Source: Blasia pusilla (lineage: Eukaryota). From it: a DNA stretch of 64,000 nt. The position numbers were made by a program, and so were the translations under genes. Positions within the stretch are counted from its first letter, which is position 1. Each line of letters starts with the position of its first letter. The DNA lies in assembly GCA_050084515.1 (NCBI GenBank), contig CM114271.1, positions 4,278,001 to 4,342,000 on the forward strand, in the 5' to 3' direction. The notes under the pieces are model-generated. The model saw only the letters and a program-made list of their open reading frames with translations. It had not been told where the DNA came from and did not search any database. Below are positions 7,801-53,889 of the stretch, piece after piece.

Positions 7801-7835
7801 ATTGATGTTTAGAACAAAGTGATGTTCTGACTGCA

Positions 7836-7890: not shown

Positions 7891-8192
7891 CCAGAAAATT
7901 TTGCTGCCTCCAGTATTTTGATAAGAATACCTTGCCCTTCTTTTGTCCTATCGCATTGACCAATCAATTCTCCAGACTGCCCACACTCAGGTTCCTTGGT
8001 CAAAGAGAGAATGAGTAGAACAAATACTAAGATCTCTCTCCCAAGCACCGTACAACCAGGGCACGGGATCTCTGGTCACAAGGCTGCAACAGGCACAACT
8101 TAATGAGAAGAGTCTGGGCGACAACCTGGCAAAGAGGAGAACCAAGACCAACACTAGTACTTGAGTGAATAAGAGATCCCCATGTGCCCACA

Positions 8193-9447: not shown

Positions 9448-9961
9448 GTTTCTCTCTTAATTCTTACATTGTTGTGTGACGACTAGAGAAAATCACCTGG
9501 CACAAAGGACCTCTTAAGCCCTTGCTGTGCTTTCTTCGAATTGCTGTTCTTTTTGCAAAACTGAGTCTCATGGCCCTGTGGGGTCCCCATGGACAATCAA
9601 TCTATTTGTTCATTCATTCATTCTCTCTCTGTCTCTGTCTCTCTTTTTCTTTTTTTTCTTTTGTTTTGAATCTCAGAATCCAGACGAGAAACTGCAAATA
9701 GTTTATCTTTTAAGACAGCTTGTACCACTGGAGTTCCAAATCTACTGGACTGCCTCTAGTAGCTATGAAGTACAAAAAGAAGATAAGCCACTGTCAAATA
9801 AGCTCTGCAACGATGTGAGTCTGAAAAACAGGACTCACCTGTAGTCTGGCACCTGTAGTCGGGCACACCAAAGTGCTGAGGCTGCAGAAAAGAATAGAGT
9901 TTCATATTTCGTACTTTACACCACAACCTTTTGATGAGAGACGAGCTGGCTCACAAAGACC

Positions 9962-17589: not shown

Positions 17590-18220
17590 GATTAGGAGGA
17601 GACACGTGGCCGAGATATTCACAACAACGGGGTAATCTTGGGATACCTACGTACTAGCAACATAGTGGACACGATGTATGCCAACGATTAGGATTGGATC
17701 CTATCACAAGCAAGATAGGGGACATATGCTTTAAGAGTTTGAGAGCCTAAGGATGGTAGAATGCAAGTGGTGCTTCGTCTTCTTAGAGAGCATATTTGGT
17801 GCAACATGCTCACGAGGAATAGGAGCATTTTGGGATATAGCGTACATATAGCTTGCTCTAGTTACAATATTGGTGGCGAGGCACGCAGACAAATGTATAA
17901 TAGTTTGTTGCCTTGTGTATGGTATGTGTTCAGGTGCGAGTATTGTACAATGTTATGACTCCACAATTGCATCCACTATAGATCTTGGGTTTAGGCTACC
18001 GATGGAATTTAGATTTTGCAAGGCCTTTACTATTGAAGAAGTGCCACAATCATTATTTTTTGGTGAGGATCGAATAGTATAACGAATACTTCTTGAAGTG
18101 AATAGAGTTGGTTAGATTATTTGACAAGGTGAGTGAGGGAGTAGTGTATGCACTCCTCAATCGAGTGTAGATTCAATTTGGTGTACCACTAAAAGTGTTG
18201 ACGAACCATGGATGCTTGTG
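17590..18220 (+). mobile_element. Degenerate Gypsy integrase fragment related to the DNMT-carrying family
   Basis: Remnants matching QHAHEELGHFG, WWRG, PQLHPLPIMGLGYR and EGVAYAFLDRV of element 1. Confidence 0.65.
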
Positions 18221-19427
18221 GATGGAGAGGCAAAGGTGGGAATGAGATGAAAAAAACGTTTTTCATCACAAATAAGTCTATCCTATGGATGGAAATATTT
18301 TTGTCTATGAGATACAAGTTTTTATAGGAGATGTTTTTGTAATTACTTGCCTCCATGTCTAGACTCCATTGTTGAATGTGTTAGCCTAATGCTTTGTGTG
18401 TGTGGTTAGTAACGATATGCACATATGTGTACAACAACACAATCCTCATGACTAACAACAAAGAGGACGTGATTAAAAATCACCACAAAAGATTATGAAC
18501 TTTCTTCCAAATGAAAAGTCTCTTGAATGAGCGAAACATTCCCATAATGACCTAAAATGCATAGTGATCTTCCCCCTCTACAAAGCATATTAAAGCTAAG
18601 CCCCCTTTAGCAACAAGAAAGTTTGCACATGTCTCACACGTCCTTAAGAGAGTTTGGATACATAGAGCTAGCTCGACTTACGACTAATGGGACATTCGTA
18701 TCTCTCACAAAGTATGAATGTCGCACTTGGACCAGGAAATAAGTGTAAAATATAAATATAAAAAAGGATGGGAAACCCATGATGATATAAATGAGGGGGC
18801 ATAGAGAGGGAAAAAAAACCATAAGGGGCCAAAACCGGCCCCGAAGAGAAAGAAGGGGGTCTTCCCCAGCAACCAAAATCACCAATAGCAGAGACAATAT
18901 GAGCAACACCTAGAGAACTATAACTACAACTAAGTGGGCCTCTAGCATTGGCATCTCCAACCGCCAAAGCTTGCTGCAAAAATCCATTTGCCTGGGCACG
19001 TTGCGAAACTATGGAGATCCGTTGTTTACAATAAAATATCGCAGTGGCTAAGGACAATCCATTTCTTGACCGGAGATATGGGCGCTATCCGTAACCCATT
19101 TCTGGACCGGAGAGGATGAAAACAATCCGTAAGGTCTACAATGTCTACGTACGGACTTCAAATGGGTCTTTGCTTAAGTCGAGGGAGTGCTGAAACGGAC
19201 GACGAGGGGGCTACTTAAGCGTAGAGGATCGGGAAAATCGATTGGAAAACGCAGCGGAGTCTGAAACGGGCGAGGAGGGAGGAGCTGTTTAAGCGTAGAG
19301 GAGCGGGGAAATCGTGTAAAGTACAGCGGAGAGTAGTCGGGGCAGGTCGAATACTGATCGACTGAGTGAAGTTTCCACGAGCACGAAGAGGAGGGTCGCA
19401 GGTCCCACACCATCCAGAGCAGCAATC

Positions 19428-22160
19428 ATGGTCTTGAAGCTCTACGGCGAGTTTACTTCCCAGCCTTGCAGGGCTGTTGCAGTTTTTCTGAAGTAACATC
19501 TCTTATCCTCATGTTCAGCTGAATGAAGGGATTATGCTGTGTAGTACCCTGCCTTATTGTTTGTCTTGTGAAATTCTTTCGAAGTCGTACATGCTCAACA
19601 CGCGTATCAGTACGCTCGCAGTAGGAGTTATTTTACATCCTGAGAGGGTCCCTTTTTGTTGTTAGTATCGTCGAAGATACTCGGAAAGTGCTATATGTAC
19701 GATGGAAGAGTTACGCAACTCAACTTGTTACCAATTCTCCACATTGTTCTTATGTCGTATCACAAGTCAGGACACCATAATTCTTGTTGAGTTGGCCATA
19801 CTTTCATTCGGCAATGTTGGTTCTCTGCTTTATTTGGCTCAAAATAGTTCAATTTGTAGTCCACAATTCTGGAAGCGGTGTAGTTCGTGGATTTGGAATG
19901 TAGCTTCGGCCAGCCTCTTCCAACTGGCCTATCGAAAATTTTGATGGAACATGCGTTGATTAAGAGGGTGTAATATTTTGATTTTGTAGTCAATCGTTAC
20001 TTTAGGCAAATGATTTTAGCCGTTTTCTCTGATGGACAAGCTACCTTTCTTGGACATTGAATCAGGCATTTAGATGAGTGTGCTAGCCAATCAAGAAATG
20101 CTGTCACTATTGCAACTTATCGAGTCATTACCTCCTGGAACCTGTAATGCAGAGTCAACAATATCGAATACGATTTCAACATTGTGCACCTTGGGAAACT
20201 CGAGCATAGAAGCCCCGCGTTCTTAGGTGCGGTTTATGCGGCCCTTTGCGGAGTTCCCCTATTGCCTTTTCAAGCTTTTAGAGATCGATTTCAAATTATC
20301 TAACTGCTGTCATCTTATGAGTGGATGCTAAGCTGAAAGATGTGATTTATATCCAGCGGAAATCTGCAAAGATGATCGTAACTTCAAGCTGTCATCATAC
20401 GACACCTCGCATCTGTAACGCTAGACTGAGTTCCTGCCAAGAGTAACAGAAGAGTAGTAGACAATACAATTTTTTCGCTTCCATGTCCTGCCGAAATTGG
20501 CCTTGTTACTTTTCAAGAGAGTGCGCAATTCGGACTAGTATCATGGAAGTTGCCCCACGTAGTAGTTCTCTGTCAGCAAAGGTTTAAGTCTAAGAACGTT
20601 TTTCACGTTGCCTCTTCCAATGTTGTCAATCCTATGGGGCAAATACCAGCCATCGATGATGATGGTTTTTGTCTTGCCGAAGGGTGATTCCTGAAAACCT
20701 AGGTCCTTGAATGTGGGACATGCCAATGGTTTGACTGTGATATGTCGTCGCAGGATAGTCTCAATGATAGATGTGGAACAACATTTCCCCTCTGTATATT
20801 GCATTCGTGAATGGTAGATGTAGAACAACATTTTTCCGGATAATGCATTCGTGGTCGACCTGAGGTTCGTGTATGTCGAGGCAGTTCAAGGAATTCCTGT
20901 TACAATTTGTATGTCTTAACGTGTCAAATGAATGTTACATGAGAAAAGCTGTCTAGAATAGAGTACCGTGTTTCTGATTCCCTCTGGAATTTGTCATATC
21001 TTTGATCGGCTCGACGAGAAAACATGAGTCTCACCCGGTGGCAGCGCTTTGGATGTTGCTGGATTGTTCCAAAAGTTGCCACGACATGTGACGTCTGAAT
21101 ATGATTGATTTGATGTATACATTGTGAAAGAGGTTTTCTAATTTGGGCTACGTCTGTGTTTGGCACGTTACAATTTTGAAATACCTCTTGCTACACGCTC
21201 TGTACCCGCTCACTGGTGAGTCCAAGCGTTTCATTCCTTCGCTTCTGACACCGAAATCCCAAAACGCCGTTCAGTCATAGCGGAAGTCGACGAGCTTCTC
21301 TCCTTGTCTTTGGCATGAGAACAGCAGATTTCTGATTGAAGACAAATTCTGGGGCCTGCTTTAATTGCAATAGTGTGTCAGGTGTGTGAAGTGTGAAAGG
21401 TTTGTTTTTAGATCAAACTTTAGGACCTTACAAGAAACGGTATATGTATGGGTACACACTAGAAATTGCTCAGTATTAGCTGATGAACTTGAAGATTTTT
21501 CCGAGACAGGTACCCTGCAGATGTGAAGCAAAGGGCTAAACTAGACTGGATATTGGACTGGTACCATTCCAATCTTCGTAAAACTGCATGTAAGACTCTG
21601 TAAGTCTGTATTCTATTCGAGCTTTTGTTTGATACCCCTGAGATATTCTCATTATGAATCATTGCTTGTCGATGGATCACTTCAACTAGATCTTTACTGT
21701 TTAAGACGTTTTCCACACGGTTTCAGCGCCAATGTATGGATTACTTTTGACTTTGAGACGGCGATGACGTTCTCTAGAGTTCATTGAAGCCAATTGGTTA
21801 ACGGCGGATGGCCCTTTAGTGCCACTGAGCCGTCCTTGGCCGAATGTTTTTTAGCCCCTCTTCGACTCCATCACGCTAATTATAGTTGTCCTAAATTTGT
21901 GGATAATTCCGTCGGATTTTGTTTAGGTGTGAGTGTGAAACTAATGAGCGATCTGTGATTTCCTTCCTCCGGATCTTGTGCTTTATGCGGACGTGGGGGC
22001 TGGATTGCAGTTGCTGAACAAGGAAGGTCAGGAAGCGGCGCTCGGTAAAAGGGAGAAAATCAAACTGTGGGCCAAAGCATTTAGATAAATCCGCACTATG
22101 CAGAAGTGTGTGATCTGGGAAACGGCGAAAGGTCAAGAAAACACATGCCAACTATTAGAA
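19428..22160 (+). pseudogene. Disrupted paralog of theta-class GST
   Basis: Exons 1-2 match the 40450 copy. Splice acceptors of exons 3, 4 and 6 and the exon 6 donor are lost, and exons 6-7 carry multiple deletions. Confidence 0.8.
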
Positions 22161-23984: not shown

Positions 23985-25139
23985 TCTTCTTCTTCTTCTT
24001 TCCTTCGATCGTGGGCCTCACTTCACCAAATCACACAACATTCCTTCTCCTCCTCCTCCTTTCCTTCCTTTTGTCGCATTTTTTCCATCCTAACTTTTGT
24101 CTATCTATCCTTCCTACTCTCTATCATCATCTTCTGCATAATCTCCTTTTCGTCTGTTGTTTGCTTTATCGACTCTGTCGTGCGCATACACATCGCTACA
24201 CAACATACATCGCTATCACTGAACACACACACAAACACACACGATCCCATGCTAACTCATGACATCCAAACAACGAGACAAGAAGTACCAAAATATCTCC
24301 AATAAAGTAAGATCTCACAATCTCTCTCTACACAATCTCACACCATAGCTCTCAAAGGTGTGCACTCTCTCTCATGTCAAACTAAACCCACTCTCCTAAT
24401 GAGAGGCTTGGGTTACACTCACAAGGCAAGGGACCATAGCTCCGTCGCCTCATGCCAAGAGGTTCAACAAAGAGAGAATGAGCTCTCAAGCTCTCTCTCT
24501 CCTTGGGATATATATCCCTCCCCTCTCCCAAGCTCTCTCCATGGTAACCTATTCTCCCAAGTCACCTCTTTGGCTCTTGACCTGATGTAGGAGGTCAAGG
24601 GCCACTTAACAAAAATAGAAAGTTGATCATATACTCAAAATGGTACTTACCTAAAATAGTAATTTCCTCAATATGGCTCCAAAGGAGCCAAAACGAAGGG
24701 GAAACCTGTTCTCTCACGTTTCCCCGGGCCCTAGCAGGTCATCCTCGACCTCCCAGGCCTGTCCTCCACTACTCTTGAAGACGCTCTACTAGATCTCACC
24801 GATGTATCCTAAAGGACGTGACAACTGTCGTGCGCATACACATTGCTAAACAACATACATCGCTATCACTGAACACACACACAAACACGTACGATCCCAT
24901 GCTAACTCATGGCATCCAAACAACGAGACAAGAAGTACCAAAATATCTCCAATCGCCCCCCTAGCTGGTGGTTAGGTCCCTCTAACTCCAGATAGCCATC
25001 TATCCCTACCTTCCATGACATACATCTCTCGGACACTAAGAGCAAGAAGGTCGGGTGCTCATGTGGCCTCATCGTTAGTCGCCTTCATGTAATCCATATC
25101 AAAGAAAAAGTCGGGATCGAAACCTACCTAGTATCTCCT

Positions 25140-28100
25140 CTATGTACATCTGGGACACATCCATCGTCCCCGAGGAACCCTAGTGAGAGGTGGCGTCAGA
25201 CATGCCATATGTCAACCTCTCGAACAACCATCACAGACTAGCATTGTGGCCGCACCACGGGCAGAACCACACAACATACAACGCAAGCCTGCAGGAATTA
25301 CTGCTAAGCTCGGATCCACTATACTATCAATGTTAGGAAGGTGACATGGTCCTTCCATACCATACCATCGCGTCCCTCCAACAAGAGAACACCGGATGGC
25401 AAAACGTCACACACTCTCAGGATAGTGCGCCCTGCAGTCACATCCAACGTCATCGTTGCCGTCTGCTGCAAGTAGACATAATCTCCCTGATGAAACCTCC
25501 AGATAGTTGGTCGATAACCACCACCCCGAATAGTCGCATACCTCAATGTATCTCGATGTTGCGCAATCGCCAAGTTCTCGAACGCCATGGGCATCATTCT
25601 CTGAAATAACTCAGCCCTCTGAGAACATGCTCGCACCCATACATCTGGGTCATCAAGGTCCAACACCTCACCCGCATCTCGACGAATGGCCGCATGTAAA
25701 TCTGGCTCTCGGCCATAAAGTAGCAAGTACGGTGAAAAAGACGCTAAGGATGCCTGCTTGCTGAATCTGTATCCCATCGCCAACCATGGCAACTGGAGGT
25801 CCCAATCTCCTAGGTGACCTCTCTGCAAGCCATACTTGTGTAAACCCCTCTTCACCGTCTGCACAACTCTCTCCGCTAATCCATCCGCCTCGGGATGATC
25901 TCACAAAGTCATGCAGTGGTCGATAAGCACTTGATCACACAAGGCTTGGAACTCACCTCGAAACTCGGTACCCTGGTCTGTCAACACCTCAGCCGGTGCG
26001 CCATAATGACTCAGCACTCTGTCAAGGAAGGCATAAGCTACTCCCTCACTCGCTTTGTCAGGCAATGCAACCAACTCGATCCACTTTGAGAAGTGCTCGA
26101 CCATCACCAACACATAACGACTGTGACGCTTTGTCAAAGGCAAAGGTCCTCCAAAATCCAAACTCCATCTATACCCTAAGCCCATGATCGGTAATGGATG
26201 CAACTGTGGAGTCGGAGCATTGAACGATGCTCGGACCCAATCACACACCATGCACCTGGCAACAAACTGCTGAACGTCAGTCTGCATGCCTCGCCACCAA
26301 TCGAATCTGGAGCAAGTCGACGTCCGCTTCACCCCAAAGTGACCCAACTCCTCGTGGGCATGCTGCACTAGTCGTGCTCTCTGCGAAGGATGCGGCACTA
26401 TGAGTACTCTGCCATCCTCCCAAACCCTCAAAACATGTCTCCCCTCCCAACGGAACCGTATGGCCCGCTGTAGGATCCGATCTCGCTCTCTAGCACCCAT
26501 AGTGCTCGCAACGCTGCCCGTACAAAGGTACTCCAAGACTACTCCATCATCATGAATATCTCGGCCACCTGTCGTCTCCTCACTGGCCTCGGGATCCAAG
26601 GACTCTCCATTAGACCTCACCATCGAAGTCTCCACACTCTGGCTCTCCATAGCAAACATGCCTAAATAGGCTGACGCGTGCCATCCTGGCACCGACTCCT
26701 CATCACTCTCTCCATGCCATCGAGCTCCAGTCGCATCTCGCTGACTCGGGCATGGGTTACGACTCAACCCATCTGCATCTTGGTTGAGCCTCCCAAGTTT
26801 ATGTACCACCTGAAAATCATACTCCTGCAACAACAGAGCCCATCTCGCAAGCTTCCCTATAAGCTTGTCGGACTCCATCAACCACTTCAGTGGTTGATGA
26901 TCAGTGATGATAGTAAAGGGGTTGCCGAATAAGTAACACCTGAAATGCGCGACAGCCCACACCGCAACCAAGCACTCACCCTCATATGAGCTGTACTTTG
27001 CCTATGCAGCGTTGTTCGAGCGGCTAGCGTAAGCCACCATGAACTCTCTACCCTCATCATCATGTTGGGTGAGCACCGCTCCAAGCCCCAACATGCTCCA
27101 ATTGTGTGCAACTGGAAAGGACGCCCCCTGATCGGTCTCCTCAAGATGGGCGCAGACATCAACCTGTCCTTGAGCAACTGAAATGCTTGCTCCTGCTCAT
27201 CCCCCCAGTGCCACTCGTGATCCACCTTGGTCAGAAAGGTCAGTGGCTTCGCAATCGAACTAAATCCCTTGATGTATCGCCGATAGAAGTTTGTCAATCC
27301 CATGAATGCGCGAACCCGGCTCACATCTGTAGGGCGTGGAATGCGTGAGATAGCGTCTACCTTCGTTTGCTGAACACCAAGGCCCCCTAGGTATATCGTA
27401 TGACCCAAGTACTCAATCTGGTCGTAGAAGAACTTGCACTTGCCTGGATGTAGCTTCAACCCATGTAATTGCAATCATGGAAACACCTCCTCTAGATGTC
27501 GCTCATGCTCCTCAACCGTGGCGCTAAAGACTACGATATCATCAATATAACACCTAGCAAAATCTAGACCAGCGAAGATCCTATCCATCACCCTCTGAAA
27601 CTCAGCCGTGGTGTTCTTTAACCCAAATAGAAAGAACCGCGACTGGTACAAACAATCCTTCCCGTGAGGATCGATGCCCCAAAATGTCGTCTTCACTTTG
27701 TCCTCCAATCGATAGGCGGTGATGGTATCGGCTCATAAATCCAATGAATCAAGACCTTTGCGTGACCAATCGCATCAAAGATCTCCTCAGGGGTGGGCAT
27801 GGCATACCTATTGGACTTCGTGTGTCGATTGATAGGTCGGTAATCCCCACACATCCGCCTATCCGTCCAGTTGCCATGCACATCCTTCTTGGCGGGCATG
27901 ACAGTGGAAGATGCAAACTCCCCATGCGACATCTCGACTAGTCCTGCTCTGACCAAGTCCTACCTCCTACTCTAAATCAGAGCCCTCTCCATATCACTGT
28001 ACCTGTAGGGTCGTCGGAAGATCGGCGTATCACTTGACAACTCAATGCGGATCCCCAGTCCCTTCAGCGTACCCAAATCCTCCATGCTAAACCCAAAGCA

Positions 28101-28190: not shown

Positions 28191-28233
28191 AACTACGGTA
28201 GGACTCTCCCGCGCGCGTATCGGTGGTTGCTAT

Positions 28234-29263
28234 TGTCGCGACCCTCATAACCAAACAACACCAAATAGGCGCCAAGCGAAACATAAGAACTCCAAGGAAC
28301 TCACGTTGCGAGGTTTGCGCTTTGGAGAGGCGTTTGGAAGAGTCTCTTGGAAAAGTCTAAGAGACGAAACGCGGAACAGAGTTGTGCATTTCATGCATTA
28401 GTGGTCGCGACCAGGAAACCTAGACCATACGCAGCCGAGACTTGAGGTGAGTTGAGTCTTGGGAGGTTGGTTGCCAAAGAGGCGAGAACCAGTTTGGAAC
28501 ACGACTAGCGTTTGAGAGAATCTGACTGTGTTTAGGACCATAACGTTGATCTCCAAGATGCGTTTGAGACAAATAAGGGCGCGTTGGAAAGCTGATCTTG
28601 AGACGCTTCCAACGCACCAAAGATCTTAGAAAACGCATAAGTACAGGCTGAGATATTGGCCGAAAACAATTGAGAGACCAATCGGGTTGAGGGCCAATTG
28701 GAGAGGCCCGGGTGTCTTTCCCTAAATGTAGGGGGCCCCCGGAGATCCCCAGAAGTACTAGTAAGGAAGGACCTTCTCCGAGATGTCTCGGGAAACGAAA
28801 CCCCACTTTGGGCGCCAAACGGCGTTTCAGAGGCACGGGATGGAACAGGAGTTTGGCGCGGAAACCCGAAAACCAAACCTGATCCAAGGGAGTGGACTTT
28901 GTATGCCACACTTGGATTCCAACCCGAGATTCACTTCGTGCGAGTCTTGGTGAGGAACTCATTGGATGTTCATCGGACAGTTGGAACCGCTAGGCGCGAA
29001 ACGCCGTTTCAGGTTCCTGAACCGACCAGAAAGTCTGTCCCAAGTCTTTTGAGATTTGCCCGTGTTGGAAACCGCAAAACTAGGAAGGTTGAGCTTGAAG
29101 AGAGTCCGAGACGAGAACTCGGAAAGTAATCCCGCTGATTGATCCAAGACCCGACTAACCGAAGTGCGTGTTTGGATGCAGATCAACGTTGAGAGCCTGA
29201 CCTACTGAACGCACGCTTCCGCAACAAACAAGATTAACGTTCAAGGAGAGTAGGCGCACGACA
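28234..29263. mobile_element. Nested ~1030-bp solo LTR inside element 1
   Basis: TGTCGCG...GCGCACGACA with 5-bp TSD GCTAT; absent from the equivalent linker of element 2. Confidence 0.85.
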
Positions 29264-29519
29264 GCTATGGTGCAACCCCGTCTCGAACAACAACACTCGG
29301 CCGCTCTCCTGCAGCCAACTGCAAACTCTGCTCTCCTCCACGTGCAGTGCCTGAAACCACGCTCGATGTTGTGGCTATCATCTCCTTGCGTACCTGCAAA
29401 ACATCCCAAGAAGTCTAAGGGTGTCTCTCCGGATCTCCTCGGGTCTCGCCCCCACCCACTGCCTCCACTGTCTCGGTAGGCATGGGGCTCACCAACGCAA
29501 CCGCTGTGATCTGTCGCGA

Positions 29520-30490
29520 TCTCATACGACGCTGCTCAGCCACTCCCAAGCTGAGGATCCATGTCAAGCAATTCAGGTCCATCGCCTGACCCAAGATATG
29601 GCATCGTGATGCCTCTTATATTGACGGTACTGGCGTCACCCCTGTGGGAAATCCCATCGCTTGCTCTCTCTCGTCGGCGTTGGGCTCAACTAACCGCTGA
29701 ACATGGTCATCCCAAACCAAGCCAGGACCGGCCTCCTTGTATGCATAGGAAGCGGGAAAACTCATGAACGTGGGCAAGGCTGACCGCCGCCTGCCTACCC
29801 TGTTGACCACAGTCAATGTTGGTCGATCATCGTGCCTCACGCTGTGATCGACGACTTGGATCCAGAATGGAATCCACTAAAAAATGGGAGGGGCGCTCCA
29901 CTCTCGCATACGCCCTTCGTAATACCGCATGGGGCACCAAGTTGGTCCACCATAGACGCGGGCGATGGGCTCTAGAACCTACACTCGCCGCATCCAAGAA
30001 CACTGTTGGGCCGATCCACGCACGCACTTGATGAGCACTCGTCACCACCCATGACCGGGAGTCTCCTAAGATCGGCACATTCTCCAGAATGTAGGATGGA
30101 GAATGAGACTGGTGCTCCTGTAACTACCGTAAGACCCTCAACATCTCCCAAAACAACCTGGACCGAGTGTCAACCAACCCGCTGCCTCGTCCAGCACTTG
30201 ATTGGCCGTGACATGGCCAACCGGCAATGACCAAATCAATGGTCCCTACCCGCTCTAACTCTTGCGCCCCCAACAACGAAATATCCCTCGGTAGGGAACT
30301 CTGATACCCCTGTATTGCGGAGGCAGACAATAAGTCGAGAAAACGTAGGCGTAACTACGCCACATGTCGTAGTGAGACACGCCTCGCAACATCATCACTC
30401 TCCACATACAGGTGCCGTTGTACTCGCACTCCTGCCTGCAATACAACAGCTAACCCGGTGCTAATCCTTCCAAAGAGATCTAACACTCAA
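29520..30490 (-). pseudogene. Element 1 DNMT3-like C5 cytosine methyltransferase domain
   Basis: Motifs VLDLFGRISTG (I), IDLVIAGWPCHGQS (IV), ILENV (VI), AHRPRLWWTN (VIII), EREQAMGFP (IX). Confidence 0.88.
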
Positions 30491-30839: not shown

Positions 30840-33350
30840 CTGCACATGTGAATCGAACGGGTAATGAGCTAAGGCGCCCATCACCTCATTGCCATCCTGG
30901 TCTATAGGACGCTGACTCCTCCCAGTAATCCAGGGAAAACCCCATCGGGTATAACACTGCTCCACCAACCAAGGCGATAGTGACTCTGCATGAGTCACTA
31001 TCGCCTTGGCGCGCACCACGGACTCATCTGTAGGATGTCCCGGGTGAATCCTCACCACAACCTCTTGTCGGGTGATATACTGTGTGGTACTCGCTCCACC
31101 CAAGGATGTCTATATCCGGAATGGACAACGCTCCACATCGGCTCTCGTCAAGCCCAATCCTCTGAATGACGCTTTCCCCAACATCAAGGGTTGCGCTCTT
31201 GAATCCAACAAGACGCGCTACGGACTAAAAGCTCTACCTCCTGGACTCACCAAGTGGAAGACCTCTCCTCGGTTATCCAGCAACACAACACCAGGAGAAG
31301 CCATGGCACGCTCTATTGCGGGTCGAGCAGGCATCTCCGCCATTCTAGCAGCCCCAGCCTGCCATGAATCTGACGTGGACGGTCCGAGCATCCGCTCCAA
31401 GGGCAGGTCCATCACCTCCTCTACAATCACCTCTGAATGTGTTGTAGGAACTCCAACTCCACGCTCACATAGCGACGCGGCCAGCCAAAAAGCCTCAGCG
31501 GGCGTACCCCCCAACGTCATAACATCGGAAGCAGAAAACAAAGGAGTGCGGAACACAACGGTGGTCGCCCCCAACAATGTGCTTGACACATGCCCCTCCT
31601 AAGCATCAACAATATGAGTCATCGCACTCGCTTCTCCCATCGCCCTCCATGCCTGCACACCAGCATCACCAACTCTTAAGGAACTTTGATGAGGACCCAT
31701 CGATGGGGTCCTCATCGCTTCGGACAACGTGAAATACTGAGGAAGCCTAGTCTGTTTTCTGGCTTCCCCTCGTTGTGGATCCAACTTTGCGGTTGCTCCA
31801 CATGTCACAACTGCGGCGGACTCCATCTAGGCAAATCCGCACATCCAAACAGGATCCTCCAGATCTCTAGCTGCTCCATATGATGTCGATGCCACGGATC
31901 TGGCATCGGGTAACCTCAATGCCATAGCGGCAATCTGCTCCTATAGCTATTGTATCTGAGCAGCCATCCCAGCCTCACATCCGGCATCTCCCTCGGCGCG
32001 TCTAGGTGGTGGTACTCTACCTCCTCCATGGGCAGCTCCACCACCCTGTCGGGCAACTCCAGCTCCTCGTCCCCCAACGGGACCACCTGGTGCACAATCT
32101 CTAGTCCCACCCGGACCGGCTACTCGCTCTGGTGCCCTCTCTGGCCCTCGGTCCGAACGTAACTCATGATGTAAACTGAAACACCTGGCGTGTGTATGAC
32201 CATACCTCTGACAATAGTCACACTGATAACCTCCTGGTGCAGCACCATCTCCTCCTCCATGCTGAGGCATACGTCCATGACCCTGACGAGTGCAATGGCG
32301 CTGATGATGGGCTCCACCACATGACCAACAAGTAATAGTAGGCGGTTTCTGTTGAGTCGCATATGAAGGCGCAGGTCTCTGTGCCACGGGCTCCGAGTAT
32401 CCTACCTGAGCTCGTGGTGCCACAGTTGACCTATCTCAGAGTCCACGTTGCTGCATAGGTGGTGCAGCCAATCGCGACTGCTCTCGCCCAGAACCCATGG
32501 TGGCTACGCTCTCCTCCGCCATGTTGCGCTCAATATTCTCGGTGGTCCTAAAAACATCTCTCAACGTAGGTGAGGTGTTCATAAGAAGCACCCCCTCCCG
32601 CACCCATGGCCGCAGGGTCTGGTCCAGCATCACATACCATGACTGGATAGCCTGAGCCTCTGTCACTCCCTGAGTGACGTTGATCAACCGGCGCAAGCGA
32701 GTGTAAGCCTCACGTAAACTCTCATCCAGGCGCCTCTGGAAGTTGTGGATGCTCCGCAACTTTTCCGTCCATACCCCTTGGTAGCTCGCCCTCAACTCAC
32801 CAAAGAACTCAACCACGGAGTTGAACCTGGGACGAACCCGACTAGACGGTGCAACTACTCCAGTGCGAGTGACCCCTCCTAAAACATCACTAGTGGAAGA
32901 GGAAGTAGCCTCTCCTGACTCCTCCTCCTCGTGTGGGAATGGCTCCGTCCATGATTCATAGTGTGGGTCGTAGTAGAGTCGCCATGCCTCAATCTCCTGG
33001 GCATATCTGTGGGAAAACTGATGGTAATCGTCCATGGGTGCCCCCTCTAAATGCTGGAACATATCGTTCCACGTTGTAAACGGGTTGAACTCTCTAGAGT
33101 TCGTGGCCCACTGGGAACTGCACCAACTCCTAAACTCTGCTATGAAATCGTGCAACTCAATCGTACCTACTGCACCTGAAAACCTACGCAATCCTCTACC
33201 CCGGTCGTCCATCTCGTACGCCCAATTGGTAGGACCACTCAGAATATGTGGCGATGAGCTCACAAATTCCTCCACACCCTCCCCCTTGTCTAACGATGAC
33301 ACAGAAGGAGGTCGAGGTGGTCCTTGAAGTGAAGACCCTCGGAACCTCAC
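30840..33350 (-). pseudogene. Element 1 gag with two CCHC zinc knuckles, and aspartic protease
   Basis: Gag-like QRRLDESLREAYTRL; CWSCGGAHHQRHC and CDYCQRYGHTHARC; VLLDSRAQPLMLG near 31180-31215. Confidence 0.8.
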
Positions 33351-34324
33351 GCCACTCCGCGTAAAACCTCTAGAGCTACTCTCGAGTTCACCACCTCACC
33401 TCTCAAAGTCCCGAGCGGACGCCGTGATGACCCTCGTGCCTTTCTCACCCGATTACTCTTGCCTCGCGAGTAATCCCTCAATCACTCATGCCAAACATGC
33501 GGCACTCGATCTACACTCGCCCTCCCCGAGACATGTAACGTACGGCAATAAGCGGCGTGGTGCGGAAAATCGACCAGGCTATCATCTCATCCACAACCTA
33601 CCCTCAACTCCGGACATCCCACACAGGTCTATGTCCCCTAAATCACATACATAAATGTTGCTCTCAGCATCCACACACCCAATATCCCCAAATAAAATAC
33701 CCAGATCCAAGAATCCCTCACACGTGCAGGGTAAGGGACCAGAATGGGTAACCTGAACACATGTCAATGTCGCTCCTCAGCAACTGCGAAACTGCGACCC
33801 CAACTCAGTCATGGAGACAACTCCTCCAATCAGCAAGTCATACTCCTCCCGTATTGACGTTGCTCAAAACTCCTCGATAGGCAGTGCGGTTCAGCGAACG
33901 GGGCGGTGTTGCAGCAAAGACGGAGGCGGCTCGAACGGCACCGCCCTCGATGATGGGATTCGGCACTCGGCGGCATACCCTCCTCAATCAACAATAAACC
34001 CACACTCTGCTCCACAATGCTGGAGCGGCTCCGCGATGAAGACGGTGCGGTGCGGCCACCAGTGGCACGGTGTGGCAATCGGCGGCGCGTTGCGGCTACG
34101 GGCGTCACGGCACGGTACCCAATCGTCGTTGAGCGGCTACCAATCACAACATAGCAGAAGGAAATCAAAACTCAAACACTATAACATGAGGTCATATGCC
34201 ATCACAGGTTGATGACGGTGGCGGCGAAAACAAAGTACGTGATGGCGACGCAAGTCCAAGAATCAACGAACGTAATGGAAGACCCTCCACTCCGTAACGG
34301 CGGCAATGGCAACCAAGGGTGGAC

Positions 34325-34515
34325 AACGGACGGTGGACCATTGACGGTGACGGTGACGGTTGACCGTTGATGATGACGCACGAACGGTGACGGTGACGGT
34401 TGATCGTTGACCATGACGGTTGATCGTTGACTGTGACGGTTGACCATCGACAGTGAAAGTTGGCCATTGACGGTTGAAGGTTGACGGTTGACGGTGACTA
34501 TGACGGCGACGGTCG
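34325..34515. repeat. Low-complexity GACGGT(TGA) tandem array in the element 1 leader
   Basis: Repeated gacggt/gacggttga units. Confidence 0.8.
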
Positions 34516-37500
34516 CCGCCGGTGTGGCGGCTGGTTTAGGGTTTGCATAATTTAACCCTAAAAATTGCCTAGCAATGGTAGTTTTTCAATATTGACCATA
34601 ACTTTTTGCTCGTAACTCCAAATTGAGCATTGTTTGTTGCACAGCGTGCACAGCTTCACGATCTACGCTAACATCAAAAAATAATTGGAATCGGACATTC
34701 CAGTAAAAATTGGAGGGGACTGTCGTAAAGCCCAATGTCTCTTTCTTCTACCCAACATTCGGCAGGGCTTCCGCGCTTATTCCTCCCAAAAAAAATGTAA
34801 AACCTATAAAAATGCAAATGAGCAAGCGACATGATGCTCCCAAAAGCACTGGCATGGGGCAACCCGCCCCCATACTCAATCCCTATCAGAAATTGGGCAG
34901 CGCTTTCGCGCGCCACTCTTCCACACGAAAAATCGACAAATGCAATGAACAATCCAAGCAACCCTTGCTCCGATGAGCACTCCCATGAGCCGTTGAACGG
35001 GGAACACGGTCCCCAACCTGCAAAAACAGCGAGTGACCAGCGAGCTTCCCCATGAAGCTCTCTCACTCTCTCATTCTCGCATTCTCTCTTTCTCTCATTA
35101 TCTCATTCTCTCTTTGTAAAATAAGATCCAATCTCTCTCTACATAATTTCACACCATAGCTCTCAAAGGTGTGCATTCTCTCTCATGTCAAACCAAACCC
35201 ACTCTCCAAATGAGAGGCTTGGGTTACACTCACAAGGCAAGGGACCATAGCTCCGCCGCCTCATGCCAAGAGGTTCAACAAAGAGAGAATGAGCTCTCAA
35301 GCTCTCTCTCTCCTTGGGATATATATCCCTCCCCTCTCCCAAGCTCTCTCCATGATAACCTATTCTCCCAAGTCACCTCTTTGGCTCTTGACCTGATGTA
35401 GGAGGTCAAGGGCCACTTACCAAAAATAGAAAGTTGATCATATACTCAAAATGGTACTTACCTAAAATATTAAGTTCCTCAATATGGCTCCAAATGAGCC
35501 AAAACGAAGGGGAAACCTGCTCTCTCACGTTTCTCGCGGCCTAAGCAGGTCATCCTCAACCTCCTAGGCCTATCCTCCACTATTCTTGAAGACGCTCTAC
35601 TAGATCTCACCGATCTATCCTAAAGGACGTGACAACTCAACCCTCATCCTCACCCGTTTGCTTATTTCGGTTCCTCCACTGAGGGACCGCCTCTTTGCGT
35701 GGATGGCTATATTAGACTATTTGGTGGATCCGTAATCTACCAATATTGTGACGCATGAGGGCAAGTGTTTCTGGCAAACAAAGAGTTCCATTCTCGCTCC
35801 CAGAGTTGTGCCTTACATACACCACCGTCCCTTGAATTTTGAGTAGTTTGACTTTCCTCCCCAAACGGATTGTCCAACACTTTTGTGAAAGTCATTCGCA
35901 CGATCTCAAGCTGGACTCTGGAGTTTTATAGAGGTGGTGCGTTCACTCCATCCCAAGCTTTCCTGTGGATTTGATGATTGTATTCCATTTCTTATGTTTG
36001 AGCTTATTGCACCCATCCCATTGTGGGCACTCTAAATGTTTCAATATCTAGTGTCTTGAATGTCATTTGGAAGCAGTTTATGGCACTGCACAACCTCTTC
36101 CATCTCTTACATATTCCCAAACGTCAGACTTAGGGTTGTATTGTAGTGCACATATCTTGGATTATTTGTTGGGAGTTTAGATCATAGCAAGTCTTTTTCA
36201 GCCAATATGACATGCTTCTAGCCAAGTCTATCCAAGTCTATCCAAGGGTCTTTTACCTTTCTTGCCTCACCCTTATCACTTTAAGTGGTTGCGCCCCTTC
36301 TCTCCTAAGGTTAGTCTCAAGGTGCATGCATATCTTTACTAACTTTAGTCTATGGCACGTTCCTTTCTAGTCTTGTGACTATCTGGTCTAGGTTGTGACT
36401 TTGGCACGTCGCATTTTAATCTTCACAATGGATTTCCCTTTCAACACCAAGTCGGATTCGCCTCCATCTCTACGATAGTTGCTTTGAGATGCTTTTACGC
36501 ATCGTCTTGGTTCTCAATCGACTATCAGTCTTCATTTGACAATAAGGGTATCTCAATAGATATTTCCCATGGAAGATCCAATTTGGAAGGGTAAGGTGCT
36601 TCTTTTGTTGTAATTTCTCCCAAATGTGAATAGATAATCACCTTCAATAGCGAGATTGTGTCTAATGTCATGAGATTCATGGAAAACACCCCTCTTTTGA
36701 AAAATCCACATGGTGAATACCATGTTAGTCTGCTAAAGATACTGGACTTAGAAAAGTTGGTTGCGGATGTTCAAAAAGGTTTGACTTCAAGCATTGTTGG
36801 TATTGGCCTTGATTAAGGAACATACCCTCCTTGTTCTCCATCCCTCTTTCTACAATTATCATGGAATCTCGAGACATTCCCATGGCATGGGTATTGGATT
36901 GACATATTACGTAAGGAAACGCTAGATCTTCTCTAAGACATGTCTTGAATTCCTACAAATGAAACATGAGTCATCTGGTTGGTATTGCCTCTCAAATGGT
37001 TGGTTATAAGGAGAAAGACCACCTAAAATTTCTCTCTGTGGATTGAGATAATCTGGCTCATGCATTGGCTCCAAACTTGCTAAAGGATAAGAAAACAATG
37101 GATTGTGGTTTGAACATGTGATTCAAGATATACCATGGGAGAAAATTCAATTTTCCAATCTCAAAAATCTGAAAATAATATGTATTAGACCTAATGGCAC
37201 AAAGTATATGCTTTGATGTCACATCTACTTTCAAAATGGTTGGTAAAGTTGCACTTGCAGCAGCAACAAACAACTCAAGTTGAACTTGTGTGTCTTGTAT
37301 TGACTTCTAAGTCTCAGATGGTAGCGCAAAAGCAACATAGTCAGTAGATCAGCCGTAGCAAGATGCAGGGAGAGACACTTATCGACGTTGGCTGGTTCTT
37401 TCTCTCTAGAGCAACATCTAGTTGTGAGTATGAGCACATCAAAATTATTTCCATCTCTACCTTGCGTTGATACATGCCATGATACCATTATCGTTTCAGT

Positions 37501-46610: not shown

Positions 46611-47629
46611 TTAGACGAAGTCATTTTGGTCTTTTAGGATTTTCTTCCGAAAATGGCAACTCCTTATATTCCTCAGGAGTCGGACTCATACTCGAATTGG
46701 AGTGGGTAGGCCCTCAAAGTCAAGGAGGGATTCTTTGGGAATACTAATATCTCTTCACGATCATTCCCTCATGATTTTTGCTTTCTTGGTGCGTTTCATC
46801 CCATATGTCGTGCGCATACATATCGCTACACAACATACATCGCTGGTCACATCTACACCACACAACACCAATCTTCCCCACACACGGGTCAATCCACACA
46901 TGTACAAAAATCAACTTATACATATACATGGAGATCACACAACAAAAATAAAGAGTAGTAAAACTAGCACACCCGGCCTAGAACTCCACTCCTCAATCTA
47001 CATCGGCATATCGAGCCTGCGCTATCAAGAAATCCGGACGCTAGCACCCTAGTCCTATCTCACACACATACAAGAGAGGTGCTCCAACGACCCAACATGA
47101 GAAAGATGGCTAAGGAAAGCCATCCTCCTCTCTTATATAGGGTTGGGAAGAGCCAAAAGCCTCTTCCCCTAAAAATAACCATCCCCTTGGTAACCTCCGC
47201 GCACAGGTTACCAAGGGCGGGTGACCTGGTCAACAAATCACCCAGTTGTGGAAGACCTCAACAGGAAAGTTTTCAGAAACAACGTTCCTGACACAATGGA
47301 CAGATCCTCAACCTCATTCGACACCGTGGGACAAAGTTACACTCAAGATAGTCCGTTGGCTCCTACGCCCTACCCACGATAGATCTCGGCCTATCGGCGA
47401 TTCAAATGTGACAGCTGTCGTGCGCATACATATCGCTGCACAACATACATCGTTGGTCACATCTATACCACACAACACCAATCTCCCCCACACACGGGTC
47501 AATCCACACATATAAAAAAATAAACTTATAAATATACATGGAGATCACACAACCGCCCCCCTAGTTGGCAGTTGGATCCCCCCAACTCCAGATAGAAAAT
47601 ATCACATCTCTCTGACATGACCTACTACC

Positions 47630-50600
47630 GTATACACATCTCGGACACATCCATCATCATGTGGGAACTACATCAAGAGGGGGGTTCAGACATGACATAT
47701 GCCACCCTCGAGAACAACCATCACATACCAACATGGTGGCTACACCCCTCGCAGATCCGTACAACATACACCTCAAGCCTGCAGGTACCACTGCCCAGCT
47801 CAGATCCATAGTCCCATTTACGTTTGGAAGATAACATGGCGCACAATTGCGCATATGATCCTTCCAAACCATACAATCCCGTCCCTCCAACATGAGGACT
47901 CTGGTCAGTAATACCTCACGCACATAGGATCGTGCGCCCTACAGTGATATCTAGCATCGTGGATGCCGCCTGCTGTAAATACACGTAATCTCCAGGATGA
48001 AACCTCATAATCCCTGGATGATAACCTCCTCCATAAATAGTCGTGTACCTCTGTGTATCTCTATGTTGAGCAATAGCTAAGTTCTCACAGGCCATAGGCA
48101 TAACTCTACGAAAAATCTCCGCCCTCTGAGAACACGCTTGTACCCACACAACTAGATCATCAAGATCTAACACCTCCGCCATATCACGTCAAATAGCTGC
48201 AAGTAAATCTGGCTCTCTCCCAAAGAGCAAAAATTATGGTGAAAATAACGCCAAGGATGCCTGCCGACTAAAGCGATAATCCATAGCCAACCATGTCAAG
48301 TGTAGGTCCTACTCCCTCAACTGTCCTCGCTGCAAGCCATACTTACGCAATCCTCTCTTCATTGTCTGTACTACTCTCTCCGCCAACCCATCCGCCTCAG
48401 GATGATATCTGGACGTGGTACAGTGATCTATTAGCGCCTGATCACACAAGGCCTGAAACTCTCCCCTAAACTCGATACCCTGGTCAGTCAACACCTCCGT
48501 CGATGCACCAAAGTGACTAAGCACACGATCTAGAAACGCATAAGTTGTTCCCTTGCTCACCTTGTCCGGTAGTGCCACCAACTCTATCCACTTGGAGAAA
48601 TGCTCCACCATGACCAACACGTACATGTGATGACAGCCCGTCAATGGCAAAGGTCCCGCAAAGTCTAAACTCCACCGATAATCTAAACCCATAATCGGAA
48701 AAGGATATAACTACAAAGTGGGAGCATTGAAGGATGCTTGCACTGTGTCACATACCATACATATGGCCACAAACTGTTGTACCCCAGTATGCATGTCGCG
48801 CCACCAATACTAAATCTGGAGTAAGTTGTAAGTACGCTTCACTCCAAAATGTCCCAACTCCTCATGGGCATGTCGCACTACACGTGCTCGCTCAGAAGGA
48901 TGAGGTACCACTCCTATCCTACCATCTCCCCATACCCGCAAAATGTGAATCCCCTCCCACCTGAACCTCCTGGCTCGCTGTAGGATCCGATCCCGCTCCC
49001 TAGCACTCACTATGCTTGCTATGAGGCCACTGTGCAAGAACTCCATAACCTCCACGTCGTCATGGATATCTCGACCACCTGTTGCCTCCTCACTGACCTC
49101 CAGATCCAAAGACTCATCATCCAACCCCACCATTGGAGTCATCACCTGTGCTGACCTACCATAGTCAACCAAAAAAGATAGACATATGCATGCCAACCGA
49201 GCACCATCTCCTCATCACTCTCTCCCTGCCATCGAGCTCCTGTATGGTCTCTCTGACTCGGATATGGGTTACGACTCAACCCATCCGCATCCTGGTTCAC
49301 CCGGCCTGGCTTATGAACCACCTCAAACTCATACTCTTGTAGTAATAGAGCCCACCTGGCAAGCTTTCCCATAAGCTTCTCGGACTCCATCAACCACCTC
49401 AACGGCTGATGATCAATGATAAGTGTGAAAGGGTTGCCGAATAAATAGCACCTGAAATGTGCCACGGCCCACACTACAGCCAAGCACTCTCCCTCATAGG
49501 AGCTGTACTTTGCCTCTGCAATGTTGTGTGATCGGCTCGCGTAAGCCACAACGAACTCCCTCTCCTCGTCATCCCTGTGAGTAAGCACTGCTCCTAGACC
49601 CAACATGCTCCAATCCGTATGTAACTAGAATGGGCGACCCCTAACCAGTCTCTATAAAATGGATGAGGACGTTAACCTGTCCTTGAGCTCTTGAATTGCT
49701 CACTCCTGATCATCTCCCCACAACCAAACCTGATCAAGTCTTGTCAACAAGGTCAAAGACTTTGCGATCGCACTAAAACCCTTGACATACCGTCCATAGA
49801 AGTCTGCTAGTCCAAGAAACGCTCGGACTCAACTCACATTTGTAGGGCATGGAATCTACGCAATAGCCTCCACCTTTGTCTGATGAACGCCTAACCCACT
49901 CCAATATATGGTGTGTCCCAAGTACTCAATCAGATCCTAAGAGAATCTTCACTTGCCTGGATGTAACTTCAGTCCATGTAACTGCAATTGCCGAAACAAC
50001 TCCTCCAGTGTCGCTCATGCTCCTCAACCGTGGAACTGAAGATAAGAATGTCATCTATGTAACATCGTACAAAATCCAAGCCAGCCAAAATCCTATCCAT
50101 CACTCTCTAAAACTCCGCAGGCGCGTTCTTTAACCCAAATGGTAAGAACCGCCACTGATACAAGCAATCTCTCCCGAACCGATCTATCCCCCAGAATGTT
50201 GTCTTCACCCTGTCCTCCAACTTGATAGGAAGCTGATGATAGCGAGCACATAGATCTAAAGTATTGAAGATCTTTGGATGCCCTACCGCATCAAAGATCT
50301 CCTCAGGAGTAGGCATGGCATACCGATCTGACCTGGTTTGTTGGTTGATAAGACCGTAATCTCCACACATCCGTCTATCCATCCAATTGCCATACATATC
50401 CTTCTTTGCCGGCATGACTGTGGCAGATGCATACTTCCCATGTGATAACTCCACAAGTCCTCCCTCCAACAAGTCCTGACTCTTGCTCTGAATCAAGGCT
50501 CGCTCCATATGAGAATACCTATGGGGTCGACGAAAGATCGGCGTATCACTAGCCAACTCAATCCGTTTCCCGAGACCCTTCAACGTACCCAAGTCTCTCA

Positions 50601-53600
50601 TACTGAAGGCAAAACAACTGACATGCCCTCTCAGAAACCTATGTACTTGCCGTTGCTCTCCTCCCATCAACTTGAGACCTATCACAGGCTCCCAAGTCTC
50701 CATCGTGATCTCACTCGGAGAGGACGCAACCTCCGGCTTTGGTTGCTTTGTAGCAACCCTAGCCACCTTCGCAATAGCCACTCTATTGTGATCTCCTACA
50801 CCATGATCCACATCCAAAAAATGAACATGTGCTACTCTCGCCGCCTTCGCACTCTCTGCTTGAATGACGTCCAAGGAAGTCCATGGGTGCCTATCTCTCC
50901 TCGTCTCGCCCCCAACCAATGCATGTACAGACCCTATAGGAAATGGTCCAACTTGTGGATGTAATGATATGGATGACACTCACATCCGTCTCTGCTCAAC
51001 CATACCTAGGCTGACTATCCATGTGAGACAGTTGAGGTCCATGGCCTGCCCCAACACCTGTCTCCGAGATGCCTCAATCATACCTCGCACCGCCGTAGTA
51101 CCCGTAGCAAACCCCATGGCGCGCTCACGCTCATCTGCTGTAGGCTCCTCTAATGCTCGGGTCATCTCATCCCAAATCATGTCTGGCCCTCCCTGACAAA
51201 AGGTATGGGATGCTGGGAAGCTCACCAACATTGGTAAGGCTACCCTAAACTCCCCCACCCTATTGGCCATCACCAACGGTGGTCTATCATCCCGCGTCAC
51301 CACCTGAGATCGACGCCCTGAGCCCAAAATAGCATCCACTATGAGATGTGGTGCAATCGAGACTCCATCGTATGCTCGACTCAGTACCTCTGATGGTATT
51401 ACGTTCGTCCACCACAGTCGTGGATGATGGGCATATGATCCAACTCTCGCTGCATCTAGCAACACGACAGGTCCCAACCAAGACCTCACCTGATGCACAC
51501 TCGTCATCACACGTGCACGAGTGTCTCCCAACAACGACACGTTCTCCAAAATGTACGTTGGAGAACATGTCTGACGCTCATGCAAGTGTCCTACTACTTG
51601 AAGCATCTCCCAAAACATCCCTAACCTCGGATCCTGCAATCCAAATCCTCGGCCAGCTTATGAATGACCCTCACATGGCCATCCAGCAATCACCAAATGA
51701 ATGGTGCCAACTCTATCTAGATCCAGCGCCCCCACGTCGGCGGATAGTGTATGTTGATATCCCCGTACTCTAGAGACCGAAAACAACTCAGGATATCTCT
51801 GGACCAATCTCGCTACGTGATGTAATGACACTCGCCGCGCAGTCTCATCTCTCTCCACATAAAGGTTCTAATGCACCCGTATGCCCGCCTGCAATACTAC
51901 AACCAATCTAGTGCTAATCCCTCCAAAGAGATCTAACACCCTAACACCCTCCTCTAGACACTGCCACACAATGGGTGTGATATCCAGTGGGGTCAACGTC
52001 TCCACTCTAGGGGCCCGATCATCACGTGACTCTTGCTGCTCCGAGATAAAGGCATGACTTCACGCCTGCCTCACAAGGTCGTGGGCACCCCTCTGTAGCT
52101 CTCGAGTCGTACTCCACAATGGTGAAGAGGTCTTGCCAACATGGGAAGAGACACCTGCCATGGTTTGTCTCTCTGTGGGACTATCCGCTACTGGGACATC
52201 CTCTGCATGTGCGTTCCCCTCCAACAACTCTCCTGGCCAACTAACACTACCTGTGAAAGCTGCCAACGTGGTCACAGACTCGTCTCGTGATCGACCACCT
52301 CGTCCCGCAAACTGCATGGGTAACTGACTCATCCGCCCGTCACTTGACCGACACCCTGGCTGATAAGCAATGATCTCCTCCCATAAGTCAAGGATGAATC
52401 TTAGGGGATATAACACTGTATTCCCCCACCAACACATCGTACGACTCAGATGGTGTCGTAATCGCACGTGTGCGCACCATAGCACTATCCGTCGCATGCT
52501 CTAGCTGGACTCTGACAACTATCTCCTATCGAGTCATATATTGTATGGGTGACGTGCCCCAAATCGAGGTCTCTATCTGGAAGGGACAAGGCTCAATGTC
52601 GGCCTTTTGTAACCCCAACGCTAAACACACCGCCTTCCCTAACATCAAGGGTTGCGCTCCCAAATCAAGTAGGGCGCGTTGCAGGTGGTAGACTCTCCCC
52701 GTTGGACTAACCAAGAAAAATACTCCAGGTCGGTTATCCAGTAACACTACTCCATGAGTCACCACTGCTCGCTCTATGGCCGGTCGAGCTGGCATATCTA
52801 CCAACTTCGCCGCCGCCGTATGCCATGACTATGTGGAGAACGTCCCAAGCACCGGCTCTGAGGGCAAGTCCACCACCTCCTCAACTACCTCTGAACAAGA
52901 AGCAGTCACCCCTCCACGCTCACACAACGTGGCGGCCAACCAAAACACCTCAGCTGGTCCAACTCCCAACGTCGCCAACTCTATGGCAGAAAATAGGGGA
53001 GTCTGACTCACTCTATGGCCACCTCCAACACTATGGTCGACATTGACTCCACTCGAGCCGGCATAGGAGTTGTCACTCCAACTCCTCGTGACGTCCACGT
53101 GGGTGCTTGAGTTGTAGGCACCGCTGGTCGTCGAGGCACCATCGATGGTGTGTGTAGTGCCTCGGACAATGTGAATGACTGTGGAACCCTAGCTTGGCAT
53201 CCATCGGTCCCCTCCGGTGGGTCAATCTCAACTCCACCTCTTGATGGCTTGGTGCCTCTCGTAGCAAACCGAGTCACCACTACAGCCGCCTCAACCTGAG
53301 CTGCACTACACATAAACCCCATACTGGCGAGATCCTCACCCGAGTCAGGGTAAGAGGTAGAAGCTGGAGCCACACTAGCTGCTCGTGGCTCCTTTCCTTC
53401 CCTGAGCTGCATCATCGTCATGGCAGCAATTCTCTGCTCCAACTGATTGATGCGTGAGAGAAGTGCCGACTTTGGTGCTCCTGCTCCATCTCCTCAGGCT
53501 GGTGGTGGTCCTCTACCACCACGTCCACGAAGAATTCCCCGAACTCCTCCAGGACGACCGTCCCCAAGCCCTCGGCCTGCCTCTTGACATGCCTCTCAAC

Positions 53601-53685
53601 GAACGTCATAACATCTATCCCTAGTGTGACCATATCTGTGGCAATAGTCACACTGGTATTGTGGTGGGCTCTGGGGTCTCACTTC
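47630..53685 (-). pseudogene. Element 2 gag C-terminus-protease-DNMT-RT-RNase H-integrase-PHD, decayed
   Basis: Colinear with element 1: ALLDLGAQPLMLG, RRMCGDY, LPFGLKNAP, YASRS..YSSYEGECLA, WSLDFAG, LVCDGCSRGWHMSCLNPPL. Confidence 0.9.
50980..51945 (-). pseudogene. Element 2 DNMT3-like C5 cytosine methyltransferase domain
   Basis: RVLDLFGGIST, LVIAGWPCEGHS, YILENV, LDAARVGSYAHHPRLWWTN, ERERAMGF, SRRQVLGQAM. Confidence 0.9.
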
Positions 53686-53889
53686 TACGGAAGAGATCCA
53701 TCACGTACGACAAAGTATAGGGTTTTTTAATTCAATTTCGGGGAAGACTTATAAGGTTTTGTGGAAGAACTTAAGGGTATTTTTAATATAGGAAAACACT
53801 TATAACAAACATAGGGATTTATTAATTCTTTTTCTGTACATGGAAGATGTTCAAGGAAGTAAGGGGGAGATTAAGAAGATAGGAGACCA

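Follow-up and report, generated by a model that had tools for sequence, protein, structure and literature searches.

A PHD finger ends the integrase frame of a high-copy, Gypsy-like element family in Blasia pusilla that also carries a DNMT3-like methyltransferase domain

The DNA analyzed here (the window) is a stretch of 64,000 nucleotides from the liverwort Blasia pusilla (assembly GCA_050084515.1, contig CM114271.1, positions 4,278,001 to 4,342,000). On its minus strand, from 35634 to 24176, lies an element with the order A, gag-like region, protease (PR), DNMT3-like methyltransferase (DNMT), reverse transcriptase (RT), RNase H (RH), integrase (IN), PHD finger and B-A-B, where A and B are terminal repeats (Table 1). 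A 4-bp target duplication also stands after the 3' repeats, and a purine-rich tract is found just before B1. The order gag-PR-RT-RH-IN together with a DDE integrase is that of Ty3/Gypsy elements, and the element is best explained as a dead member of a high-copy Ty3/Gypsy family, a land-plant relative of the KnitGypsy-Dnmt3 kind. The copy is regarded as dead because the 19-nt deletion near 25344 puts its PHD out of frame with the integrase. A second element, of a sister subfamily, has the order protease, DNMT (50860-51885), RT-RH-IN, PHD (47633-47770) and B-A-B (46806-47553). A 350-bp tandem array occupies 53876-55302, where the 5' part of this second element ends, and a 20-bp tandem lies at 34344-34463 in the leader of the first. 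Sequence similar to the insertion at 28229-29263 recurs at other loci and is possibly a solo LTR of another family.

Table 1. Positions of the features of the two elements in the window
Feature	Position	Strand	Remarks
PHD finger (C4HC3), last domain of the Pol ORF	25143..25280	-	PF00628; one internal stop
Integrase C-terminal region (presumably GPY/F-like) and linker	25296..25546	-	frame broken by 19-nt deletion near 25344
Integrase zinc-binding and DDE core domains	25718..26389	-	PF17921, PF00665
Reverse transcriptase and RNase H	26819..28043	-	frameshifted in window copy
In-frame TAG then CAA CCA, candidate readthrough site, ORF1/ORF2 boundary	28224..28232	-	conserved among copies
1035-bp TG...CA insertion with 5-bp duplication, at the stop junction	28229..29263	.	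specific to window copy
DNMT3-like C5 cytosine methyltransferase domain	29400..30432	-	broken in window copy
Aspartic protease	31038..31223	-	match to protease region of a homolog (PF13975/PF13650)
Gag-like region with zinc-knuckle-like motifs	31950..33395	-	without a Pfam match of its own
5' repeat A, starts TG, 4-bp target duplication before it	35117..35634	-	repeat comparison
3' repeats B1 (24825-24953), A2 (about 24304-24823), B2 (24176-24303)	24176..24953	-	ends CA
Second element, sister subfamily, 5'-truncated	46806..53700	-	75% DNA identity over Pol

The initial annotation had placed a C4HC3 PHD finger at the C-terminus of the integrase, and the finger itself proved to be real. Its peptide (25146-25280) is the sole match to the C4HC3 pattern in all six frames of the window, and a PF00628 search in which the internal stop was read as X returned an E-value of 6.8e-13 and 48.9 bits against a cut-off of 24. 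The homolog reported at about 47630-47780 was also found, at 47633-47770, in a degenerate state with Cys2 lost and two stops. The position at the integrase C-terminus was upheld for the family but not for the window copy. In a genome copy set retrieved with the PHD alone as query (3,912 candidates), the PHD was in frame with the integrase in 28 of the best 30 of 40 scored copies; among these same best 30, the linker was stop-free in 22 of the 28 in-frame copies, all eight zinc ligands were kept in 22, and a stop occurred one residue past the last cysteine in 29. Between the integrase C-terminal anchor and the first cysteine there were 282 nt in 27 copies, 276 and 281 nt in one each, and 263 nt in the window copy. 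In one genome copy a frame of 386 residues runs uninterrupted from the integrase core through to the end. Across the family, the integrase ORF has the PHD as its final domain. With an earlier query that spanned the window-copy deletion, no more than 6 of the 31 rows were in frame; every copy that it returned had a linker deletion, and we read the figure as the outcome of selection by a gapped query that favours such copies.

The fusion was also followed from the other end of the element, in 80 metagenome loci retrieved with only the DNMT as query. The integrase landmark was reached in 29 of them and a PHD was present in 25 of these, 23 times in frame; in three of the four PHD-less loci fewer than 150 nt remained. 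For the PHD, uncorrected pN/pS came to 0.119/0.649 when the subfamilies were compared and to about 0.18-0.19/0.70-0.76 against four metagenome copies, and across five outside elements uncorrected pN was 0.18-0.25 and pS 0.70-0.88. By these values the PHD is conserved at the protein level, and such purifying selection indicates a function without saying which one.

A DNMT3-like domain in the same element had likewise been claimed from the window, and copies followed upstream bore this out, with DNMT in 11 of 12 and gag through integrase in 10 of 12. The domain is intronless and lies within the Gypsy element. In the window, PF00145 matched the copy of the second element with an E-value of 1.3e-5, and the DNMT of a genome copy had DNMT3A, DNMT3B and DNMT3C as its nearest solved structures (E 1.8e-8). 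Of 20 copies examined, each of five methyltransferase motif patterns occurred in 10 to 18.

The coding region is divided at a junction between DNMT and Pol. Between gag and integrase, each of the 20 modal spacings (9-13 copies each) is a multiple of three, and the layout gag-PR-DNMT, TAG, RT-RH-IN-PHD runs in one frame. The DNMT is in the Pol frame, yet it is located ahead of a conserved TAG. Among 30 copies with the RT landmark, the TAG was in frame in 23, displaced by a frameshift in three, altered by a point change in three and lost to truncation in one; of the 29 informative copies, 26 have it at the same position, and they span two subfamilies whose flanking protein differs. CAA CCA follows in 21 of the 23 copies with an in-frame TAG. 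At the metagenome loci a stop was present at the junction in 37 of 38 in-frame cases, with CAA CCC next in 34 of the 37, and a strict stop plus CARYYA occurred in only 1 of 48 loci. Three distant elements have TAG-CAG-TTA or TAG-CAA-TCA at the junction, and in one of them an unbroken gag-PR-DNMT frame of 1369 codons is directly followed by an RT-RH-IN-PHD frame of 1047 codons. UAG followed by CARYYA is the readthrough context known from tobacco mosaic virus and other plant viruses (PMC4132726), and the in-frame UAG-CAR YYA of the Blasia genome and the three distant elements is like it. In contrast to the tobacco mosaic virus type, the stop here follows a methyltransferase rather than gag directly, and many relatives have CAA CCC. 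Readthrough of TAG-CAA-CCA is the most probable reading of the junction. Re-initiation is a possible alternative, at a methionine about 15 codons past the TAG that the two subfamilies share.

The possible target of the finger was approached through its solved relatives. Among the 60 listed of 88 solved-finger matches, the closest were those of CHD4, PHF12, Lid/KDM5 PHD1, KAT6, DPF, BHC80, AIRE and UHRF1, and no ING, BPTF, TAF3 or Pygo finger occurred among these 60. In KDM5A PHD1, the pocket for H3 A1 is formed by L309, P331, G333 and W335, R2 is bound by D312, and K4 contacts E305 and D292; PHD fingers without a cage favour unmodified K4 (10.1101/715474). The family PHD has like counterparts of all five A1 and R2 residues (L309, P331, G333, W335 and D312), and an Asp follows Cys3 in 82 of 87 homologs. 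The position two before the His, which we take to be that of the cage Trp, is Gly, Ala or Met in 87 of 87 homologs and never aromatic. The counterparts of KDM5A E305, D292 and D315 are non-acidic in the land-plant finger, and with these acids missing, H3 affinity or K4 discrimination may be weak. The finger resembles readers of unmodified H3 (the KDM5 PHD1/BHC80 type) with no methyl-lysine cage, and from this likeness we infer that it may bind H3.

The explanation that we consider moderately probable as a whole is that of a KnitGypsy-Dnmt3-kind copy in which the stop splits the products, the PHD tethers the integrase and the DNMT acts in the particle. ORF1 (Gag-PR-DNMT) would be the main product, and ORF2 would be made through occasional readthrough of TAG-CAA-CCA. 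Cleavage by the protease would leave the PHD on the integrase, where it would tether the integration complex to nucleosomes via the free, unmethylated H3 N-terminus (A1 and R2). Its role would be similar to that of the chromodomain of chromoviruses, and insertions would be steered off H3K4me3 promoters. The DNMT, packaged at Gag-like amounts, would methylate the cDNA of the element in the particle, unguided by the PHD. RT and RNase H occupy about 3 kb between DNMT and integrase and, since these domains and the conserved TAG separate the two, most of the DNMT would be made without the PHD. A role in methylating cDNA has been proposed for DNMTs of this sort in the case of SymbioDIRS-Dnmt3 (PMC5890265), and a DNMT made mainly with Gag, as both readthrough and re-initiation would imply, would fit this proposal better than joint targeting. 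In yeast, no activity of the Klebsormidium DNMT was seen, a result that its authors called inconclusive (PMC5890265).

The initial annotation had envisaged one chromatin reader that targets both insertion and methylation. In such a scheme the PHD would bring integrase and DNMT together to chromatin, so that new copies are methylated at insertion, and would stand in for the ADD domain with which host DNMT3 senses unmethylated H3K4. Both domains do share one element and one frame, and their pairing has been kept across green algae and bryophytes; however, a conserved stop and RT-RH lie between them, and the protease of the element would normally cut the two apart. The idea thus found no support, and we regard this coupling as unlikely. 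It is a weaker reading than a split reader and writer, and joint targeting is doubtful in this family.

It is less probable still that the PHD is not a histone reader, and instead interacts with a protein of the host or of the element, or contributes to folding or multimerization of the integrase. The K4-contacting acidic residues missing from the land-plant finger would be consistent with this, as would a selection pattern that does not specify the function, but the H3 A1 pocket and the R2-binding Asp are kept, and the closest solved relatives among the 60 listed of 88 are H3 readers. A chance cysteine pattern, a captured piece of host gene or an assembly chimera of one copy, to which the out-of-frame, stop-bearing window copy and the 6 of 31 rows in frame with the deletion-spanning query might have pointed, is refuted by the in-frame PHD in genome copies (28 of the best 30 of 40 with the PHD-only query) and in DNMT-found loci (23 of the 25 PHDs at the 29 loci reaching the integrase) and by the intact distant element; PF00628 matches in 97 of 100 retroelement-type homologs, the query for which included the PHD, also speak against it.

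These homologs came from a query of integrase tail plus PHD, which retrieved 102 proteins, 100 of them of retroelement type, and they include Coleochaete, Volvox, Pleodorina, Tetrabaena, Tetradesmus and Hariotina. A DNMT query retrieved 57 proteins, among them those of Calypogeia and Marchantia, mostly at 55-76% identity, and also of Sphagnum and Closterium. No named Klebsormidium sequence was present among the homologs from either query. The chlorophyte relatives have the same PHD with a DNMT between RNase H and integrase, and usually continue for more than 100 residues past the PHD (69 of 87 homologs overall). RNase H and integrase are both present in 48 records; in 30 of these a related DNMT lies between the two domains, and in the other 18 it does not. 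A tree of 35 rows picked from the 100 homologs plus one genome copy split these two groups with 100/100 support and placed the Blasia genome copy and Coleochaete in the second; as it has no outgroup, it separates two groups and cannot show one clade or the order of events. The PHD-DNMT pairing persists across green algae and bryophytes. A Marchantia gene model has the same integrase tail and PHD. The Marchantia 'hypothetical protein' models Mp4g09160, Mp8g17980, Mp6g11220, Mp2g26090 and Mp7g09570 are pieces of the family, and several family-matching models end shortly after the DNMT, like ORF1 of the Blasia element. A literature search for six Marchantia gene ids found none of them.

The terminal repeats have the arrangement A...B-A-B and are not two equal LTRs. 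A complete B-A-B was found in 13 of the best 30 of 40 scored copies, the others being truncated or interrupted, and no TGG-type primer site was seen by eye after the 5' repeat. Copies with both ends start with TG and end with CA (TA at one 3' end); an exact 4-bp target duplication flanks six of 10 such copies, the window copy included, and three of four bases agree in the other four. These ends and duplications indicate that, despite its DIRS-like repeats, the family inserts as a DDE-integrase element. Family DNA formed the 3' flank in 4 of 13 cases against a 13% background (p about 0.08), which is no significant nesting preference. The B|A junction (24823-24826 in the window) reads CA-NN-TG inside a short inverted repeat. 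Its NN varies while the neighbours are nearly fixed, with seven types in the 17 loci, of 58, that show the junction. The pattern is suggestive of two ends being joined afresh in every round of replication.

Several known systems share parts of this architecture. In Klebsormidium, a Gypsy-DNMT3 element with the DNMT in its Pol ORF occurs in few copies and was attributed to an acquisition in the K. nitens lineage (PMC5890265), and Gypsy-DNMT3 elements have been named for streptophytes (10.64898/2026.05.21.726589). The Blasia family resembles KnitGypsy-Dnmt3 in its Gypsy domains, its intronless DNMT3-like domain and its DIRS-like A-coding-B-A-B repeats (PMC5890265). It differs in its thousands of copies, in its relatives in liverworts, Sphagnum and chlorophytes, and perhaps in the place of its DNMT, which shares the frame of Pol but closes ORF1 ahead of a conserved TAG. 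The term PHD occurs 0 times in the text and three supplements of the Klebsormidium paper, a scope outside which lie Fig. 4c and the main supplementary PDF, which may show one (PMC5890265). In Chlamydomonas, the Gypsy element Gypsy-7a_cRei has a PHD finger in its Gag-Pol that was proposed to help avoid harmful insertions, and its intergenic insertions are 2.6-fold enriched (10.1101/2022.06.16.496473). Compared by description only, the two are alike in having a PHD finger in a Gypsy Gag-Pol, whereas the legend for Gypsy-7a_cRei puts the PHD before INT, and a DNMT is not mentioned with that element (10.1101/2022.06.16.496473). As in chromoviruses, a histone reader ends the integrase, but in the Blasia family this is a putative reader, a PHD in place of a chromodomain. 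Chromovirus membership was rejected, as the 386-aa integrase-PHD frame has no chromo match and the ORF stops after the PHD.

EpiLTRs similarly pair a reader with methyltransferases, although their DNMTs are placed as sister to DNMT4 and are accompanied by an adenine methyltransferase (10.64898/2026.05.21.726589). PHD and chromo are the commonest chromatin domains fused to transposable elements, and the PHDs named there are cnidarian, Pygo-like readers of H3K4me (10.1101/2021.11.30.470311), in contrast to the Blasia finger, which appears to be of the unmodified-H3 type. The Phygy clade of REXdb prefers NCGN targets (PMC6317226); membership in it was rejected, a central CG being present in 0 of 6 exact target duplications, and PHD is absent from the text of the REXdb paper (PMC6317226). 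Nothing relevant was found in 10.1101/363937 and PMC11982613. Fusions of PHD to transposable elements and Gypsy-DNMT3 elements have thus each been published. For their combination, range and readthrough no description was found: a PHD plus DNMT3 in one Gypsy element, chlorophyte members and the stop junction did not come up in a search that covered subscription papers, theses and Repbase thinly.

A wider scenario is possible, and we would place it somewhat short of an even chance. A green-lineage Gypsy clade would have carried writer and PHD since before the chlorophyte-streptophyte split, and its DNMT would have moved between two positions. In streptophytes a leaky TAG-CARYYA would give a high ratio of writer to integrase, pre-methylation of the cDNA and landing on H3K4-unmethylated chromatin; DIRS-like repeats would be combined with a DDE integrase and an internal CA-NN-TG junction serving as template for the ends, in a family that would make up about one-eighth of the genome and be present in Marchantia. 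For plant and algal retroelements, guidance of insertion by a PHD is so far a proposal in the literature covered. The family links this question, and that of what retrotransposon DNMTs do, to a model plant, in which Mp7g09570, Mp4g09160, Mp8g17980 and other gene models are pieces of it. The conserved stop makes it possible to predict clearly the place of action of the methyltransferase, and chlorophytes would be added to the range reported for Gypsy-DNMT3.

The family accounted for 53,340 of 400,000 bases (13%) in 40 evenly spaced 10-kb tiles, with six PHDs and eight DNMTs, and is on this sample a major genome component; extrapolation gives roughly 2,100-12,700 PHD copies. Expression was examined in three RNA runs that come from a single study; their species label is coded, and they may not be from the same species as the genome. 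About 5,300-5,700 reads per run of 10-12 million matched, mostly 85-95% alike, with a strong bias to the expected sense orientation from gag to PHD. This RNA comes from other copies and not from the window copy, since the reads skip the 1035-bp insertion and carry extra letters at 25344.

Elsewhere in the window, more distant Gypsy fragments are present on the plus strand at 17594-18212 and 38234-39430, with about 52% identity in integrase and RNase H, and no PHD or DNMT match was found near them. The segments 17869-22134 and 39088-43265 are the two copies of a local duplication; some 21 kb separates them, and their identity is about 95% over stretches of 0.7 and 3.1 kb. Two 83%-identical fragments at 8127-9364 and 59381-60621 appeared LINE-like by eye from their translation. 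On the minus strand, 9965-12355 holds a single 797-codon frame with the domain order BAR-PH-ArfGAP-ankyrin and no intron break.
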